Below, one piece after another: positions 18,343 through 63,458 of a stretch of 64,000 nt of DNA. Source of the stretch: a virus (taxonomy: Duplodnaviria > Caudoviricetes); the IMG/VR virus record IMGVR_UViG_3300035520_001173, positions 20,061 through 84,060 of that record. The stretch is one strand, 5' to 3'. The notes under the pieces were generated by a model. It made no database searches. It was not told the DNA's origin and saw only the letters and a list, made by a program, of their open reading frames with translations. Both the position numbers and the translations under genes were made by a program. The first letter of the stretch is position 1; every line of letters begins with the position of its first letter.

Positions 18343-20313
18343 ATGGCAAAAAACAATAAAACAATATTCCAAAAGTTAACAGACGTTATTATTGGTACCA
18401 CGGGCTCGAATTTACAAACAAAGTCTATTGCAAATTATACTCTGAACGCCAATAATGATGTATTATATACATTTGGTTCAAAAGAGGAAAGAGATGCAAA
18501 GCTCAGGCAAATAAAACAAGAAAAACTTTTAGCACATCAATGGGCTAAAATCGGCTACGATACAAGCATGGAACAAATGGCAGGCGCCAATCAAGTTCGT
18601 GTTATGTATCGTGATTGCGACATGATGGATGCTTGGCCTGAAATTGGCTCCGCTCTTGATACTTATGCCGAAGAAGTTTGCAATATAGGCAAGAAAGGCA
18701 CTATCCTCAATATAAAATCCAAATCACCTCGAATTGTATCAATACTTGAAGATTTATTTGTGAACCGATTGGATATAGCTGTAATGCTTCCAATGGTCAC
18801 TCGTGCCACATGTAAATATGGCAACGAATTTATGTTTTTGAATATTGATGCTGAAAATGGCATTCTTGGATGGAGGGAATTACCGACTAAGGAAATTAGG
18901 CGTGTTGAAGATGGTATGATGAACGCCTATTCGGGTAATTACTCGGCATCGGCAACCAATCTCAAAACAAATGAAGTGAAATTTGTTTGGGAAGGCCATG
19001 ACGAAAGCGTTCCGTTTAAAAACTGGCAAATTGCCCACTTTAGGCTCATTAAAGATTCTATCTACTTGCCATACGGTGCCTCTGTTATGAATAAGGCAAG
19101 AAGACATTGGAGAATTCTATCAATGATGGAAGATTCAATGCTCCTTTATAGGCTTGAAAAAAGTGTTGAAAGGCGTATCTATAAAGTTAATGTTGGCTTG
19201 ATTGATGACCAAGACGTTCCTGCCTTCTTGCAGGAATTCATGAATAATGTAAAAAGGGCGCCTATTATTGACCCTCAAACAGGCCAAATAGACTTAAGAA
19301 AAAACTTCCTTGATGTTAGTGCAGATTACGTTATTCCTGTCAGAAGTGGGCAAGACCCGACGAGTATAGAGGTTTTGCAAAGCAATCAAAATCAACTTCA
19401 GATGTCTGATATCGAGTATATGCAAAATAAAGTACTTGCAGGTATGCGAGTGCCAAAAGCCATGCTCAACTATAGTGATGCACAAAACAAAGCCCAAAAC
19501 TTCTCTTTAATTGATATCAGATTTAATCGTGTGGTCAATAGCATACAACAGGCCATTATTATGGAGCTTAACAAGATTGCTATTATTCACCTTTACATAC
19601 TTGGTTTTACTGATGAATTGACTAATTTCACTTTGACGATGAATAATCCATCCAACCAAATTGAGATGTTGGAGCTTGATAATATGTCAAAGAGGATTAG
19701 TAATGCTACTGCTGCTTTAGCAGAGCAAGGTGGTGGTATTCCTCTAATGTCATGGCATAAAGTTCAAAAAGAAATCATGGGTTTAACTGATTCTGAAATA
19801 TCAGATATGCTTAACGAAATGAGGCTTGAAGTTGCTATTGCTAAGGAGCTTGAGAATACTCCTCAAATTATTAAAAAGACTGATTTATTCAAACAAGTAG
19901 ACCGAATTTACGGAGAACCTGGCGCCCATTATCAAGAAACACAAACTGAAGATGACGGCGGACAATTCGGCGGTGGTGGCGGAGGAATGCCCTCGCTCGG
20001 AGGTGGTGGTTTTGGAGATGATTTAGGTGATTTGGGAGAACCTGGCGCCGAGCCTGAAGGTGACATAGGCGGAGAGGAGGGCTCAGCTGATTTACAATCC
20101 ATGGGTGGAGACGAAAGCGGTGGTGGACAGCCGCTTAATGAGCGTTCTCAGCGCTTTCTAACCCTTTTGAATGAGTATAGTGCCTTAATTAATAAAGACG
20201 ATAGTGATAAAAAGAATATAGACATATACGATAAAGGTTTCTTAATTAATGAGTCATTAGATTCTGCAATAAAAAGTTTAGGAAACGGTGAAATAAAAGA
20301 GATTTTGAAATGA
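18343..20313 (+). CDS. portal protein (T4 gp20-like)
   Basis: MEDSMLLYRLEKSVERRIYKVNVG, DYVIPVR, DIEYMQNK...RVPK, DIRF motifs; Gly/Glu-rich C-terminal tail. Confidence 0.93.
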   Translation: MAKNNKTIFQKLTDVIIGTTGSNLQTKSIANYTLNANNDVLYTFGSKEERDAKLRQIKQEKLLAHQWAKIGYDTSMEQMAGANQVRVMYRDCDMMDAWPEIGSALDTYAEEVCNIGKKGTILNIKSKSPRIVSILEDLFVNRLDIAVMLPMVTRATCKYGNEFMFLNIDAENGILGWRELPTKEIRRVEDGMMNAYSGNYSASATNLKTNEVKFVWEGHDESVPFKNWQIAHFRLIKDSIYLPYGASVMNKARRHWRILSMMEDSMLLYRLEKSVERRIYKVNVGLIDDQDVPAFLQEFMNNVKRAPIIDPQTGQIDLRKNFLDVSADYVIPVRSGQDPTSIEVLQSNQNQLQMSDIEYMQNKVLAGMRVPKAMLNYSDAQNKAQNFSLIDIRFNRVVNSIQQAIIMELNKIAIIHLYILGFTDELTNFTLTMNNPSNQIEMLELDNMSKRISNATAALAEQGGGIPLMSWHKVQKEIMGLTDSEISDMLNEMRLEVAIAKELENTPQIIKKTDLFKQVDRIYGEPGAHYQETQTEDDGGQFGGGGGGMPSLGGGGFGDDLGDLGEPGAEPEGDIGGEEGSADLQSMGGDESGGGQPLNERSQRFLTLLNEYSALINKDDSDKKNIDIYDKGFLINESLDSAIKSLGNGEIKEILK

Positions 20314-55450: not shown

Positions 55451-57390
55451 TTAAAAACCAACAGCCTCACTACGTTCAATTTCACCAATGGTGTCTTGTT
55501 TTTTGTTTTCCATTGCATCAAGGATATCACGAAGTGTACCAATGCAGATTTCGGGATAAGTTTTTGACATCAAATCAAAAGAAGATGGGTCTAAGTCGGC
55601 AATTTTGAGAATTGAATTGGGTACAGTACCTTCCTCGATAAACTCAGATAATTCAGAAGAACTTAATTCATAGATAGCCTGCTCTAAACGCTGTTTTTCC
55701 TTATCAATGCCAAGCTCTTGTTCACGTTGCATCCTATTGTTATAGTCAGCAAGAATATCTTCCCACTTGCCCATACCACAAGGTTCAAGGAAAGGTGGTG
55801 TTAAACCATACTTAGACCAAAACTTAATCTCTTTATCTTCCATAGTCATAAGTTGCTCGTAAGTATCTTGATCACCAGGTTTATTTGGCTCACCATGAAC
55901 TAATGCGCATTCCTCTTCAGTGAAATATTTCCTGTCATCAGGATTGCTAACAAGAATTTTATCACGAATTTCTCGGCTAAAGCAAACCAATAAAGGGGTA
56001 ATGCGCTTGTTAAATGCGTCAATATACTTAACAGAGTTATACTCAAAACCTTCGTGGCAATAGACGTCTTCATCAGAGTCAATTACATCACGAGGCACAA
56101 GAACACAGTTAAGAATGATTTCTTCATCAACTCTTGCTGTTGGATAGTTTGCGGTTAACCACTCAGCCTTAGCAAGTTTGCGTTTGTTACCTTTATTTTC
56201 CTTATTGTATTTGTTGTACGCACGGTCAACCTCTTTTGAAATCTCGGTTCCGTCGGCATCGTAGTAATGAGTAACCTTTTTGACATCAGGATGAGATTTC
56301 AATTTGCCTGTATTGATATAATAGATGGTATCACCAGTATTAACTTCAAGACCTTCTTTTAAAACAAGCTCATACCAAGCCTGTCTTGATTTAGGCCTAC
56401 CTGCCTTGGTGATTTCTTTTATATCTTTTTGATATTGGGCAATAGTCTTTTTGATTTTACCTTTAGACGCAATATCCCTAATAGGAATTTTATAATTGTA
56501 TAGTTTTTCTATGTAATCATAATATTCCTTGATAAATGCCTTTCCATTGCCTTGCAAAAGGTATAGAATAGCCTTGTCCAAGAAATTTGCTATATAAGCA
56601 TTTAACCTCTTAGACTTTATAGTATTGCCCACGAGTTTCTTATCTTTTCCTGGCGGATTCTCAGGAAAGTAATCCGCATAATTCTTTCGTGCAAAGTTAA
56701 TGGTTGAAGCTACCACTTCATCGCTTTAATCAATGCCTTTTTCTATTTGCATTGTCAGACTATATCACCACCCTCAGCATTACCTGTTAGGGGCCTCCCG
56801 TTTCCACTATAAGATTCTACTTACAATGTACTCTACTAAGTGTAATCTCTTACCTGTTCGATAGTCGTTGAACCTTCATCTTAAAAAAGATGCTTGGATG
56901 CTTTTAGTTGATCTACCCACAATTAAGGTTTTTACGATAGAATAAGCATTACCTTATCTTCTTCATCAATGTCACCATAATAAAGTCGTACTCAATTGTT
57001 CGTTATGGGTTTTACCAGCAGTTAAAGAGGTTATTGCCCTAATGTTTCCATTAGGCGGCACCGTGTAAGCTAATGCCAAGTCCCATTTTTTGCACTCCAT
57101 CAGGGCTGTAGACATCCTTCATGTATAAATCATTGAATTCTGCTACATCAGCCTCGAAGCCTGTATATTCTTTACCGAGTTTTACTTCACGATTAGACCC
57201 CTTGCCAATGTAAGGGTTATCTTTCGTGTATCGGTATTTGCTTTCATCGGGGAGTTGGAAATTAAAGCCTTCAGCCATCGGTATTCTTGCATACCAACCC
57301 TGTATAAGCATCCACAAAGGTGCCATCCAAGGATATATCGTACACAAGAGTACCGATGCTTCCTTTTGCAATTTTTTTAGATGTTGCCAT
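55451..57390 (-). CDS. polB: family-B DNA polymerase, C-terminal half, fused to a split-intein C-fragment. Composite reading 57390-57274, 57266-57073, 56723-55451 (527 aa)
   Basis: Joined sequence gives ...VCKN/TDGFNFQLP...ADVAEFND...MGLGIDEVVASTINFARKNYAD..., i.e. PolB motif C and the K-NY motif followed by the thumb region. Confidence 0.8.
56724..57072 (-). mobile_element. group I intron (IA-like, 349 nt, no internal ORF)
   Basis: Exon ends in U, P1 GGCAU/GUGCC with U.G pair, P2 with GAAA loop, P4 UGCUGG/CCAAGCA, P7 GACUAU/AUAGUC, P9, terminal G. Removal restores GGC-ATC-GAT (GLGIDEV) in frame. Confidence 0.92.
57283..57390 (-). other. split intein C-fragment (36 aa)
   Basis: MATSKKIAKGSIGTLVYDISLDGTFVDAYTGLVCKN followed by T(+1)DG; block F VYDISL and terminal Asn. 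Confidence 0.8.
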
Positions 57391-57425
57391 TTATTATTTT
57401 ATTTATTGCGTTAAACAATTCACGA

Positions 57426-57433
57426 CAAAGATA
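57426..57433 (-). promoter_or_regulatory. Bacteroidota-type -7 element TATCTTTG
   Basis: 35 nt upstream of the intein-C/polB ATG; no clear -33 element. Confidence 0.55.
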
Positions 57434-57447
57434 CAAATATTAAATCA

Positions 57448-58548
57448 TTAATACCATGTGTTCTCAATCCAATTTTTAGACAGATATGGTAATTCTTGGA
57501 ATTTAGCTTGAACCGTGTATCCTGTCAACCATTTTATCGCACGAACATCTGTCGTTGTAATCTCATCATCTATTTTAATCACAGTTCCAGATATATTCAA
57601 ACAATCATTAGATGGGAATTTACATAGACCTGCTTTCAATAGGCCACATTGGTATTTTACACCATGGATTAACTCATAATTAAAGGGGATTTCAATATTA
57701 AGTTCAGCTTTTGTTTCATGGGATTTCTTATAACTCATACATTTATCTTTCATTGGGCAATCCCAACATCCAACTTCATTCGGCCTATAATAATGTGCAT
57801 TAGGGTCTCTTTGGAGATTATGAGTATACGCAATTAAGCATGAAGTCTTTCTAAAAATAGGAATATTATAAGACTTAGCAATTTCTCTCAGTCTATTATC
57901 TCTCTCATCAGATATAAATTTCTTCAATCCAAACTCATGTCCATCATACGGTTTGAAATGAATATCTTGACTTTCTAAATATTGTTTTAGTGAGGGGTTG
58001 ACCTGTAATCCTGAATACCCAATAGATGTTTTATATTCAGAAGCAGTTCGACATACAAAGTCAAAGACATCATCAGAGTCATTTACATCACGAATGATTG
58101 GTCTGAACTCAATGTTATACTTGTAATTGCTTTGAGAAATGACATCGAGATTGTGAATAAACCGTTTTAATGCATTGCCATCATAAGGAGAATCATAACC
58201 AAAAGTAGATAATCCAAAATGAAGGTTCAAGTCAAAAGTTTCCAAAATAGGAAACTTTGATATATCTCCTTTGGTAATTATGATAACTGGGCCTGTATGA
58301 CCAACACTTTCCAATCTCCTAAGTTTCTTTACAGTATCATCAACTTGCAAAAGAGGGTCACCATACATAAGGTTAATAGCAATAGGAAAACTTTTGAAGA
58401 TAGGATTGATTTCTTCTGGCAAAATATCATAGTTTAATTTGTCGGTTTCAATAGCTCGACAATACTTACAACCAAAACATTTATTTAGGCCATGTGAATA
58501 ACTGACGAAACTTTTTGTGAAATATAAATCTTTAATTAAATTGTCCAT
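57448..58548 (-). CDS. radical-SAM/SPL-like Fe-S protein with atypical CX2CX2C motif
   Basis: KCFGCKYC, YGDP, ITKG, RPII and a further Cys cluster at the C-terminus. Confidence 0.6.
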   Translation of the reverse strand: MDNLIKDLYFTKSFVSYSHGLNKCFGCKYCRAIETDKLNYDILPEEINPIFKSFPIAINLMYGDPLLQVDDTVKKLRRLESVGHTGPVIIITKGDISKFPILETFDLNLHFGLSTFGYDSPYDGNALKRFIHNLDVISQSNYKYNIEFRPIIRDVNDSDDVFDFVCRTASEYKTSIGYSGLQVNPSLKQYLESQDIHFKPYDGHEFGLKKFISDERDNRLREIAKSYNIPIFRKTSCLIAYTHNLQRDPNAHYYRPNEVGCWDCPMKDKCMSYKKSHETKAELNIEIPFNYELIHGVKYQCGLLKAGLCKFPSNDCLNISGTVIKIDDEITTTDVRAIKWLTGYTVQAKFQELPYLSKNWIENTWY

Positions 58549-58618: not shown

Positions 58619-59524
58619 TTAATATTTAAAGTTTTCAATATCACTCATAAAAAATTCTAGTTCACCACTGAGAATCGGATATTTCTTTTCCACTTTTACG
58701 GACTCTTCAAAACGTTGATATACTTCATTTAAATTAATATCATTTGGATATTTTATCTTATATAATTCATATGCGTTTTTATACTTTCGAAGCAGTCGGT
58801 TCTTGGCGAAGTGTATTCTATACATGAAGTTTTTATGGCTAATGCCATATTGGTTTATGACTTTACATACATTTTCATCAGATGATTTTTTAATATAATT
58901 TTCAGCATTCGTAAAGTGTGCAAATATAGTTTTATTTAGTGTATGTTCAAAACATTTTTTACTTTTGTTATTTATCAAATCCTTATAATATTGATGCACA
59001 AAAGCATCTTGTTCATGTTTAAAAGAGCAATACAAACAATAACCTATAGCTTGAGTTAGTGCATTTCTACTTGACGCTAACTTAATTGAAATATCATATA
59101 AATCTATATTCTTCTTAAGTCCTTGGGAATACTGGTACAAATGTGTCAATTCGTGAGCTATTGTCGATTTAAAGTTTGATATCATTTCACTATTAATCAT
59201 TATTGAAACAATATCAATCGACGCTGATTCATAATCTGCTTGCGAGTTAAAATTTATTCCTGAATACTTATATAATTTACTATATTGCTTTTCATCCGTT
59301 ACATATATAACATAACGAACAACGGTATTTTTCAAGTATTTAGAAAACCTACTTAAATCAAATACAAACCTGCCTTGTACAAATGGTATTTTTAAACCGA
59401 AATTGCTATTATATAAAACACTTCCGAATTTAATTGTATTATTAACTTCAGTGGTTATTCTGTTTGACAACATATCCGTAAAATTAATCACCACTGATGA
59501 TACGCTTTTCTCTTCTTTTATCAT
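58619..59524 (-). CDS. putative zincin-like metalloprotein
   Basis: IAHELTHLYQ (HExxH) and downstream HEQDA. Confidence 0.6.
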   Translation of the reverse strand: MIKEEKSVSSVVINFTDMLSNRITTEVNNTIKFGSVLYNSNFGLKIPFVQGRFVFDLSRFSKYLKNTVVRYVIYVTDEKQYSKLYKYSGINFNSQADYESASIDIVSIMINSEMISNFKSTIAHELTHLYQYSQGLKKNIDLYDISIKLASSRNALTQAIGYCLYCSFKHEQDAFVHQYYKDLINNKSKKCFEHTLNKTIFAHFTNAENYIKKSSDENVCKVINQYGISHKNFMYRIHFAKNRLLRKYKNAYELYKIKYPNDINLNEVYQRFEESVKVEKKYPILSGELEFFMSDIENFKY

Positions 59525-61014
59525 ATTTTAATATTTTTGTTATTCCAAATATATCTTATCAAACCGCAATCATATATCCTATATGCACCGATTTTATCTA
59601 CCATTTCAGTTTCGGTCATGCTCATTGGCAAATTGTACTTTTTACTTAAAATATTCTTTCTGAAATTGAATTTATGATATCGTTTTAAATTGAAATAATA
59701 ACTATATGTCGGTGTTGTATAGCCATCAAAACGAAATCCTAAATTAAGATAAACATTACTATTTTCATTAATGGTCCATCTTCTATCTGCAAAGGATTTA
59801 ATATAAGAAGGTTTATAGTTCTTAACGAAGTAATTAAAAAGTTTACCACCAATACCTTGACATATATAATGATAATCGGAAGCAAAACGTGTTAACTCCC
59901 ATCTATCACTACCTTTATACTCGCTCCTAAAGGACATTACGCCTATTAAAGCATCATTATAAAAAGCACCAAGATATATAGTCGCAGAACCGCATCCTTG
60001 AATGTGATATGTATCTAAGAATTCCTTACAATCTTTATGTGATAAAACCTTGATAACACACTTTCTACCCATAATTTTAGGTAATTCGTCAGAATGCTTT
60101 AGAAGATGCTTAATTTTATTTAAAACGATATCCTTATGCTCGGCATATTCGTCCTCAAAGATTTGAATTAATTTAATACCCTTCTTTTTGCACTCTTCAG
60201 TTTTTCTAATATGGTAGTGTTTATCTTTATTCATAGAACAATGCCAATAAAGTCCATTATATTCAATAGCAATCTTTTTATCGGGAATATACATATCAAG
60301 TTCTAATGGTGATATTATTGTTCTATCTCTTTGAATTGTTAATGATTCTAATGATTTAACATATTCAAATATTTCATTTTCAGCTTGAGATGAGATATTA
60401 GCGCATAAAGGACAGCCATGACCACGCATGTGACTATGAGGAGTTTGATAAAAATCACCATGTACGGGGCACGTCACCACAACTTTACCATTATCATCCT
60501 TATTATCTAAATCTGTTTTATTATAGAAATAATAACCGTTATGTATTTCTTTTGCTCTACTGATAAATTCCTCGGTATTCATTTTATTTATTTTAGAGAC
60601 TTTTTCAGCCATACATTTGGGACAACCATGGCCTTTCAGATGGTCATGAGGAACTTGCTTAAAGAGTCCATGCTTAGGACAGATTATTTCAATCGAGGTG
60701 TAAGCATTTTTGTATTCTTGTTTTGGATATGTATAAAAACTTTGATGAACGTTATTTGCTTGGCCTACAAACTCTTCAAAAGATTTTTTAGTTTTACTTG
60801 CACATACATCTCGTCCGCATTTAGTGCAGCCATGACCTCTTAAATGATTTTTCGGAGTTTGCCAAAACTCTCCATGTATAGGACAAATAATACAGACTTT
60901 CTCAGTATTATTCTTATACTCTATTTTAGAGTAATCATATTTATCACCGTGAAGTTCTTTAGCCTTTCTTAAAAAATCTTGTACTTTTAGAGCTTTAGTC
61001 ATGTTTATTGTCAA
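59521..61014 (-). mobile_element. putative homing endonuclease: 3 Zn-finger repeats, PD-(D/E)xK-type nuclease and GNAT/Mom-like C-terminal domain
   Basis: CPxHG...H..GxGCxxC x3; ELDMYIP..KIAIEYNGLYWH; ELTRFAS...SFADRRW...LGF. Confidence 0.75.
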
Positions 61015-61766: not shown

Positions 61767-63458
61767 TTATTTAAATTCCATTTTATAGCATAAACAGCCA
61801 CAGTCGTATATTCTGAACCACCCTTGTGATTTACAGAATTCACGTTCTGACATTTCAGGAGGGCAGCCGAATTTTTCTATAAGGACTTGTTTTCTGAAGT
61901 TAAAACGATAAACTCTTTTGCCTTTGTAAATATAGTAATAATTAGGCTTGGACTTGTTATATAATTCAAAACCTAATTTTTCATATAAGTTACCATTTGA
62001 CCATCTTCTATCTGCATAACTAACAAGACTTGAGGGTTCGTAATCTTCGATGAAATGCTTTAATAAACGGCTTGCCCCACCGATTACGTTTGTATTTAGC
62101 TTATTGCAGAATCTGAGTAATTCCCATTCAAATTTGCCACTACCCACAAAATGTCTTGACTTACCAAATGTCATCAAAGAAACTAATTCATCATTAAAAT
62201 AAAGCCCTAATTTAACCGAAGAGCCACAAGCACCCTGTAAGTGATTTGAATTTAAGAAGGCTGTGGCATCGGAAGCCGAAACTTCTTTGATGATACAATT
62301 TCTTGCATAAATATGAGTTTCAACTTTAGCTAAAATACTACAAATCATAGATTTAACAATTTCAGGCTTATTTTTCCATTCATCTTCGAAAATATGGAAA
62401 AGTCTAATGCCCCGTTCTTCACAACGGACAGTTTTCTTTAAATGAAAATCGAATTCTTTACGGGCGTCAGAGTGCCAATACAAGCCGTTATATTCAATAC
62501 CAAAATTACATGAAGGAACATAGATGTCTATTTCGTCACCTTTTAGTATTCTCCTCTCACGTTGCTTTACATTTTCGGAACCTATCAACTCGCATATAAA
62601 GTTATATAGCTCATCTTCCCCTCTTGAATGTGCGAAAGAACAAGAAGGGCAACGATAACCAAGAAATAGATGGTTTGCAGCGTCCATTTCAAATGGCCCA
62701 TGTTTTTTACAGACAATAGTTACTTTTCCACTTTGGGACGTGTAACTATCAGGTAGATATTCATACTCATTATTATGGGCGGCTTTTGCTCTTTGCACAT
62801 ACTCCTCAAAAGGTATTGTACGAGTTTCAGCGCATTTTCTAATTCCGCATTTTGGACAACCCTGCTTGCCTTTTATATGGTTATTAAATGTCTGGTAAAA
62901 TATTCCATGTTCGGGGCATATTATTGGGTATTTAATTCTATCGTTCTTATATTCAGTTATTTGTGAATAATCATATTTGTTATTATGGGTTTCATTAGCA
63001 ATTGCAACAACTTCTTCGATTGTCCGTCGTTTACTTGAAGCCGATTTTATATAGCGGCATTTAGGGCAACCCTGCCCACTCAGGAGGTGTCCTGGTGTTA
63101 TTTCAAAATCCCCATGCTCTTGACCGTTTTCTTCTTTGCAATGGCATGTAATAACAACCTTTGCGTGGTTCGTTTTGTACTTTGTTTTTTCAAACGTAAA
63201 ATTTGAACAATCTACCTTTTTCCTTGCCTTATCTATAAATTCCTCGTTAGTGTATCTTTTTCGGCCTGAACACTCAGGGCAACCCTGTTTCATGTTTATA
63301 TGTTTCTGAAAAGACTTATAAAACACACCGTGCTCAGGGCACCTTATGGGTACTTTCTGTTTTCTCATGGTATAAGTAGCCTCATCGATTAGAGAATAGT
63401 CATATTTATCGCCATGAATTGTTTTCGCTATAGCAATATCTTCTTTTAAATTAGCCAT
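61767..63458 (-). mobile_element. paralogous putative homing endonuclease: 4 Zn-finger repeats, nuclease and GNAT/Mom-like domain
   Basis: CPEHG...GCPxC repeats; EIDIYVP..FGIEYNGLYWH; ELLRFC...GGASRLL...SYADRRW. Confidence 0.75.

Follow-up and report, generated by a model that had tools for sequence, protein, structure and literature searches.

A putative short stop-hop in catalytic motif C of a split-intein jumbo phage DNA polymerase

A 64,000-nucleotide (nt) stretch of viral DNA (positions 20,061 to 84,060 of IMG/VR record IMGVR_UViG_3300035520_001173), referred to below as the window, carries on its minus strand the gene for the C-half of a family-B DNA polymerase (PolB). A natural split intein divides this enzyme within catalytic motif C. 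Three codons past the end of the intein C-fragment (IntC), 9 nt after the splice junction, the coding frame of this half is broken. The sequence there reads AAT ACC GAT GGC TGA A GGC TTT AAT TTC, with the first GGC at 57276-57274, TGA at 57273-57271, A at 57270, the second GGC at 57269-57267 and TTT at 57266-57264. The break is best read as the site of a programmed short-range translational bypass (a ‘stop-hop’) from the first GGC to the second, and on the comparative evidence laid out below we put the probability of this reading at about 0.8. The source is an uncultured jumbo phage, judging by the contigs of 240-412 kb on which its relatives lie; the IMG/VR record itself is 84 kb long, with a CheckV completeness of 24%.

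The 40-codon open reading frame (ORF) at 57390-57271 encodes M...VYDISLDGTFVDAYTGLVCKN/TDG followed by the stop (here and below, slashes in protein sequences mark the splice junction), that is, IntC and three extein residues, and the +1 frame past the break runs FNFQLPDESKYRY... to 57073. The break therefore falls within the VGD/TDGFNF of motif C. In-frame homologues have TDG followed directly by FNF, or by MNF in one clade, and take the form ...HN/TDGFNF... at intein-bearing loci and VGDTDGFNF at unsplit ones; the window is thus exactly 7 nt longer. All counts of loci with a candidate hop site (hop loci) and of in-frame loci given in this text are among the matches listed, from sets of 171 and 288 loci. 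The in-frame loci comprise 75 from IMG/VR and Logan (54 with an intein, 21 unsplit) and 71 more from metagenome contigs (36 and 35, respectively), and no gap is present in more than 110 non-redundant loci of this kind. The extra 7 nt recur in Logan contig SRR11794512_73570 (L001; public run SRR11794512), which was produced by another assembler and is 100% identical to the window over 56700-57588. Since two assemblers agree on the 7 nt, they are no single-assembly artefact, and the GGC-TGA-A-GGC arrangement in the catalytic motif, on which the original prediction was built, is confirmed. The gap resembles an imperfect 7-nt duplication (GATGGCT followed by GAaGGCT) and, to judge by this likeness, probably arose as one.

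The same grammar is found at twelve diverged loci, giving thirteen with the window (Table 1): a Gly codon, an adjacent stop, 0-3 nt, a second Gly codon and then FNF or MNF. At every one of them a stop comes right after the Gly codon of TDG (TGA at eight loci, TAA at three and TAG at two), the second Gly codon stands immediately before FNF or MNF, and the downstream frame is the frame of that second codon. Gaps of 5, 7, 8 and 9 nt would require frame changes of +2, +1, +2 and 0, respectively. As all three frame relations are covered, a Gly-to-Gly hop alone yields TDGFNF (or TDG-MNF) throughout, and there is no frameshift or readthrough product that the loci would have in common. The sites thus bring together cognate codons, a stop directly 3′ of the take-off codon and a conserved protein that is restored in any frame relation, all of which are expected of bypassing. 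All thirteen hop loci are intein-bearing, and the gap occurs in none of 46 non-redundant unsplit loci. A search for the exact pattern of the 7-nt form, ACNGAYGGNTRRNGGNTTYAAYTT, gave no match in viral contigs.

Table 1. Sequence at the break in the thirteen hop loci, written from the take-off codon to the landing codon
Locus	Sequence	Gap (nt)	Remark
Window	GGC TGA A GGC	7	
L002	GGC TAA A GGC	7	Logan contig
L005, L120, L171, L173	GGC TGA AT GGT	8	
L057	GGC TGA AT GGC	8	
L064	GGT TAA AT GGT	8	
L066	GGC TGA AA GGT	8	
L141	GGC TGA CA GGT	8	
L172	GGC TAA CA GGA	8	ENA ERZ28653447, 371-400; followed by TTC
L017	GGT TAG GT	5	stop shares its G with landing GGT
L163	GGC TAG TTA GGT	9	in frame

Codon usage at these sites is restricted. 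Take-off codons are GGC at eleven loci and GGT at two, and landing codons are GGT at nine, GGC at three and GGA at one, so that 25 of the 26 are GGY. In the in-frame intein loci the corresponding codon is GGT in 30 cases, GGA in 18, GGC in 13 and GGG in 7 (63% GGY, 19% GGC). GGC and GGT are read by one tRNA-Gly with the anticodon GCC, and the restriction to GGY fits re-pairing by a single tRNA of this kind. We give this agreement modest weight, because a duplication origin also predicts matching codons and the lineages are non-independent. ARAGORN detected no tRNA on the 84-kb, 24%-complete contig.

The hop loci do not form a single clade. They are scattered over a maximum-likelihood tree (83 loci, about 400 residues of the C-terminal part), on which the 7 hop loci then known require 7 changes; well-supported branches make at least 6 of these unavoidable. 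Grouped by nucleotide identity of IntC, ten hop loci fall into about six groups: the window; L002 and L005; L057, L066 and L163; L120 and L141; L017; and L064. Members of one group can differ in the gap. L002 (7 nt, TAA) and L005 (8 nt, TGA) have IntC sequences that are 91% identical at the nucleotide level; the IntC sequences of L057 (8 nt), L066 (8 nt) and L163 (9 nt) are 86-92% identical to one another; and the IntC of L051, an in-frame locus, is 91% identical to that of L057. That near-identical inteins are followed by differing gaps implies that insertions and deletions in the gap are tolerated and that the coding frame follows the landing codon, which is the prediction of a hop and not that of a fixed frameshift. 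L030 and L033-L035 carry other IntC types than L066, yet their exteins are nearly identical to its own. Given this conflict between IntC type and extein phylogeny, the segment made up of the intein and the gap appears to move by recombination.

Upstream of the take-off codon, an RNA hairpin is predicted within the sequence that codes for IntC (Table 2). The segment folded at each locus was 58 nt long and ended 10 nt before the take-off codon. In the first set of loci, the seven hop loci and L003, a locus with one extra nucleotide that is described below, were the eight most stable of 74 non-redundant loci. With metagenome loci added, ten hop loci folded at -14.5 to -18.4 kcal/mol, as against -0.7 to -14.2 kcal/mol (mean -8.9) for 68 in-frame intein loci (Mann-Whitney U = 0, p = 1.9e-7); the three hop loci found later (L171-L173) fold at -16.9 to -17.8 kcal/mol, and the range of -14.5 to -18.4 holds for all thirteen. 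We also compared each locus with 150 synonymous recodings. The mean z-score was -3.3 for the hop-type group (here the seven hop loci then known together with L003) and -0.3 for the in-frame loci (p = 2.5e-7), which indicates that the stem is made by codon choice and not by the protein sequence. RNAalifold returned a consensus hairpin of 17 pairs with compensatory changes at five of them. Between the 3′ edge of the hairpin and the take-off codon there are about 12-16 nt, which puts this edge roughly at the mRNA exit of the ribosome.

These properties make the hairpin a candidate 5′ stimulator of the hop. Refolding of the 5′ stem-loop of T4 gene 60 is proposed (10.1101/2024.12.09.627546) to pull the message forward, and by analogy the refolding stem could pull the mRNA forward here as well. 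In the window, IntC is of another lineage and the hairpin departs from the consensus; the z-score of this hairpin against synonymous recodings is -2.9. The IntC type of the window is also found in four in-frame alleles; three of these have weak folds (-6.8 to -8.8 kcal/mol), and the fourth, L168, is taken up below.

The event we propose would run as follows. A ribosome would hold peptidyl-tRNA-Gly on GGC in its P site while a slow-to-decode UGA occupies the A site; the tRNA would unpair, the mRNA would slide by 7 nt, and the same tRNA would re-pair with the next GGC, so that TGA and A are skipped. Decoding would resume at UUU to give ...N/TDG-FNFQLP..., with no residue added or lost, and the peptide predicted across the junction is ...NTDGFNFQLPDESK. 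The hairpin in the IntC coding sequence, standing just behind the ribosome, would probably promote the forward slide. After removal of a probable group I intron from the RNA, the hopped product would be joined by trans-splicing to the N-half, yielding VGD-TDGFNF. The original prediction had proposed a matched-codon hop from GGC to GGC that gives exactly TDG-FNF, and this proposal is supported by the twelve further loci, their intact downstream frames and the codon-tuned hairpin. The prediction had also held that a plain GGC TTT in all close relatives would speak against a hop. The closest relatives, P0002 and P0003 (66-67% identical), do have the plain sequence; as the trait is sporadic, the plain sequence of these two is not decisive.

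Several observations weigh against a hop. The matched codons may partly be a by-product of a short tandem duplication, and the landing codon of L172 is GGA, not GGY, so that a third-base match between the two codons may not be strictly needed. Compared with dinucleotide shuffles, the window hairpin does not reach significance (z = -0.96). An in-frame locus of the window's IntC type, L168:325-382 (Logan SRR24925870; P0005), has a hairpin of -18.4 kcal/mol, stronger than that of the window, and lacks the gap; a recent loss of the gap or pre-adaptation of the allele may account for this. In the window an ATG at 57279-57277, in the FNF frame, overlaps the stop and makes independent initiation possible, and the N-half is off this contig. 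Finally, synthetic stop-hops in Escherichia coli are reportedly inefficient, whereas a replicative polymerase is presumably needed in quantity. A failed hop would release IntC-TDG, and trans-splicing of this peptide could use up an N-half by capping it with nothing more than TDG; this would call for an efficient hop, unless the by-product serves control.

The start codon in the window invites a reading with two polypeptides. TGA would end IntC-TDG, which would trans-splice to the N-fragment to complete ...VGDTDG, and the remainder of the C-half would be initiated separately (MAEGFNF...) and join non-covalently. Besides the ATG overlapping the stop in ATGGCTGA, this reading can draw on P0024, P0030, P0042, P0052 and P0080, which are apparently split near motif C without an intein (they have an unrelated N-terminal extension), and on the existence of split PolB enzymes, such as that of Methanothermobacter (cited in PMC2677866). 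However, upstream of FNF the FNF frame contains neither ATG nor GTG nor TTG in L005, L017, L057 and L066, and separate initiation leaves the adjacency of the stop, the second Gly codon before FNF and the codon-tuned hairpin unexplained, which makes it improbable. A conventional +1 frameshift at GGC-UGA would read GAA GGC and produce TDG-E-G-FNF, with two extra residues. The site has the typical setting of +1 shifts, in which a P-site codon is followed by a stop in the A site, as happens in prfB (CUU UGA), and such a shift also restores the frame across a 7-nt gap. Relatives with gaps of 5, 8 and 9 nt, on the other hand, would need -1/+2 shifts or readthrough, inserting 2-3 differing residues beside the invariant DTDGFNF; re-pairing from GGC to GCU would be poor, and the conserved second Gly codon has no explanation in a +1 shift. 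We accordingly see very little chance that a frameshift operates here.

It is just as hard to regard the allele as dead or erroneous, that is, as an inactivating duplication or a sequencing or assembly error with no full-length C-half made. The likeness of the gap to an imperfect 7-nt tandem duplication speaks for this reading, as does an accidental-looking duplication of the same length in a low-coverage relative, L091 (ENA human-gut contig NODE-12576, whose name gives a coverage of about 2.5), where a perfect repeat, TTCAACT twice in succession, stands just after TDG. L091, however, has no stop beside the Gly codon and a weak upstream fold (-7.7 kcal/mol); it looks like an error or a dead allele, an example of an accidental break. 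The sequence at the break was obtained from two assemblers, its grammar is common to twelve diverged loci from other samples, and the adjacent stop and the hairpin are present in 13/13 loci. Its C-half keeps the invariant residues of the family alignment and has 72 + 421 open codons despite a long terminal branch (0.47 changes per column). The inactivating duplication or assembly artefact that had been named at the outset as the alternative to a hop is thus unlikely. Two further candidates were rejected: stop-codon reassignment, since each of the three stops is found at this position in one locus or another and readthrough would leave the frame wrong, and removal of the 5-9 nt at the RNA level, by an intron or by editing, for which there is no known mechanism.

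Other unusual structures were observed at or near the same position. In the window, GGCU GAA GGCU (57267-57277, minus strand) is self-complementary (G.U, G-C, C-G, U.G), a candidate tiny hairpin in which the take-off and landing codons would be paired and the stop would lie in the loop; it recalls the take-off stem-loop of gene 60. L003:82-110 (Logan SRR12177864_2358; protein P0053) reads GAT GGC TTT C AAC TTT AAA, with one extra base after TTT. Its zero frame gives TDGFQL and a stop, and TDGFNFKLP would result exactly if tRNA-Phe slipped by +1 from UUU to UUC. Since the locus also has a strong upstream hairpin (-15.5 kcal/mol), the extra base may mark a programmed +1 site and not an error. 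The C-halves P0024, P0030, P0042, P0052, P0080 and P0081 open with an unrelated extension of 25-35 amino acids (aa), for example MNKKYKITINGK..SLPKYY..., and not with IntC-TDGFNF, which suggests another, intein-less split of this polymerase near motif C.

Beyond the landing codon the gene is largely intact. The frame is open for 481-516 codons at eight of the ten loci checked (L171-L173 are outside the ten), and at the other two, the window and L120, it is open until an intron-like interruption. In the window this interruption is 349 nt long and is a probable group I intron. RF00028 (Rfam group I) aligns to it over the full model length with 16.5 bits (E 0.14), whereas the gathering score is 50, and at the gathering threshold Rfam gave no match in the window. 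Its boundaries have U at -1 of the 5′ splice site and omega-G at the 3′ end, and joining GGC AT to C GAT across them yields MGLGI-DEVV, which matches the homologues. The N-half was not found on the 84-kb, 24%-complete contig by searches with PF00136 and PF03104, and tblastn with unsplit homologues returned the C-half only. In three hop-bearing relatives the N-half lies a few kb upstream and is intact, with 836-871 aa in an open frame; the relatives' N-halves end in ...PIVGD/SFTGDTPLFIKY..., with an intein N-fragment (IntN) that begins with Ser1 (PIVGD/SFTGDTPLF). Active polymerase had been proposed in the original prediction to depend on three successive events, RNA self-splicing, ribosome hopping and protein trans-splicing. 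This proposal is supported in part. The intron is probable from its boundary bases and the restored MGLGI-DEVV, alongside a low RF00028 score; the partner for trans-splicing, absent from the contig, is nonetheless intact in the three relatives. One replication gene would in this way stack a split intein, a hop and a probable intron.

Table 2. Features of the polymerase C-half in the window
Feature	Position	Strand	Basis or remark
Split-intein C-fragment (IntC), 36 aa, ends ...GLVCKN	57283..57390	minus	ATG 57390-57388; aligned with IntC of more than 60 homologues (VYDISLDG...xN/T)
RNA hairpin inside IntC coding sequence, upstream of take-off codon; core stem 57332-57298	57288..57344	minus	minimum free energy -14.7 kcal/mol
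First three C-extein codons, ACC GAT GGC, T-D-G of motif C	57274..57282	minus	T, D and G invariant in family alignment
7 extra nt: stop TGA, spacer A, second GGC	57267..57273	minus	no counterpart in any in-frame homologue; exact placement arbitrary, as GGC is repeated
C-extein exon 1, resumes at TTT (FNFQLPDESKYRY...MGLG + AT)	57073..57266	minus	tblastn
Probable ORF-less group I intron, 349 nt	56724..57072	minus	RF00028, splice-site rules
C-extein exon 2, thumb/C-terminal region	55451..56723	minus	421-codon open frame at 56716-55451

Assignment of the gene to PolB follows from its motif C (DTD) and from a thumb that is homologous to PF00136 proteins. Unsplit, longer homologues, P0013 and P0049 among them, read ...PIVGDTDGFNF... 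and carry PF00136 (DNA_pol_B). C-halves at full length have about 520 aa in a single frame, arranged as M...VYDISLDG...xN/TDGFNFxLP...MGLGIDE...INFxRKNY.... The 421-aa piece encoded by the window has 1260 homologues in a large protein collection, and exon 1 of the C-extein is 85% identical to residues 37-104 of P0003 (tblastn). Pfam and PHROGs gave no match for the window's own polymerase fragments, and megablast and tblastn against a phage collection gave no match. IntC shows the structure of a split-intein C-fragment: VYDISLDG...VCKN/T is placed within VGD/TDG, with Asn at its end followed by a nucleophilic +1 residue, and the penultimate residue in the window is Lys, not His.

The likeness to T4 gene 60 (Huang 1988) extends to matched Gly codons, a stop directly 3′ of the take-off codon (GGA-UAG...GGA), an upstream mRNA stem-loop (here a predicted one), residence in an essential phage replication enzyme and a sporadic, apparently mobile distribution beside selfish elements. 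The gene 60 gap, however, is 50 nt long, is flanked by GGA codons and lies in a topoisomerase, whereas the PolB sites have gaps of 5-9 nt and GGC or GGT codons and stand three codons past a split-intein junction. There is no sequence homology to the gene 60/MobA cassette and no MobA; the PolB site would work alike without being a member of the cassette. Homologues of gene 60 occur solely in topoisomerase genes, within the MobA cassette (Manning & Atkins, bioRxiv 10.1101/2022.08.31.505936). Closer in size are the synthetic stop-hops made in E. coli (Weiss, Dunn, Atkins, Gesteland 1987; PMC5009743), in which identical or cognate codons flank a stop and re-pairing takes place a few nt downstream (+5, +6, 9-nt). 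Those were laboratory constructs of reportedly low efficiency, whereas the PolB sites are natural, recurrent and accompanied by a hairpin. The mitochondrial byps of Magnusiomyces capitatus (Lang/Nosek, cited in PMC5009743) are likewise numerous short non-coding inserts in essential genes that are bypassed with matched codons; they are GC-rich and 27-55 nt long, as compared with the phage gaps of 5-9 nt, which share a single position. Fractured genes (Dassa et al. 2009, PMC2677866) and the split PolB intein of Nanoarchaeum equitans (Choi 2006) offer a parallel for the other half of the arrangement, with PolB split at motif C, intervening genes and trans-splicing. Those systems have no translational gap, whereas here the hop site lies 9 nt past the splice junction.

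Natural bypassing is accepted for T4 gene 60 and its homologues and for the byps of yeast mitochondria. According to a 2016 review (PMC5009743), shorter natural matched-codon counterparts had long been presumed, and no natural in-frame stop-hop was known. A full-text literature search of incomplete coverage found no paper on a hop in PolB or beside an intein. Bypassing is among the rarest decoding events, and a minimal natural hop with gaps of 5-9 nt would extend its known kinds. The more than a dozen natural variants, with three stops, varied spacers and a tunable hairpin, would provide a ready mutational series for take-off and landing.

Rather than a tolerated scar, the gap could be a device under selection that moves together with the split-intein cassette, a view that we consider doubtful and advance only tentatively. 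It may gate output, with hop efficiency set by the hairpin and by release-factor competition, and with failed hops releasing IntC-TDG that caps N-halves. Alternatively, it may shield the allele from a homing endonuclease that targets the intein site, by analogy with the protection of gene 60 by its gap against MobA. If the gap is indeed such a device, these loci would be the first natural family of stop-hops that are short (5-9 nt) and have a defined stimulator.

The break also has consequences for annotation, since these polymerase genes are split or cut short by gene callers, as in the truncated P0009, P0011, P0053, P0068 and P0095. Genomes could therefore be mis-scored as being without an intact polymerase.

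Several neighbouring genes on the minus strand of the window are of note. A 366-aa ORF directly upstream of the IntC gene (57448-58548) has CxxCxxC (CFGCKYC) near its N-terminus and no Pfam or PHROG match. A 301-aa ORF (58619-59524) with weak SprT-like/HExxH metallopeptidase matches, below cut-off, sits farther upstream of the C-half gene, where relatives have the genes that separate the polymerase halves. The ORFs at 59521-61014 and 61767-63458 are large paralogues with repeated treble-clef/DUF723/CapR-like modules and a GNAT/Mom-like C-terminal part. They are likely homing-endonuclease-like selfish genes tied to the fractured polymerase, and in several relatives endonuclease-like genes containing DUF723 lie directly upstream of the C-half gene.

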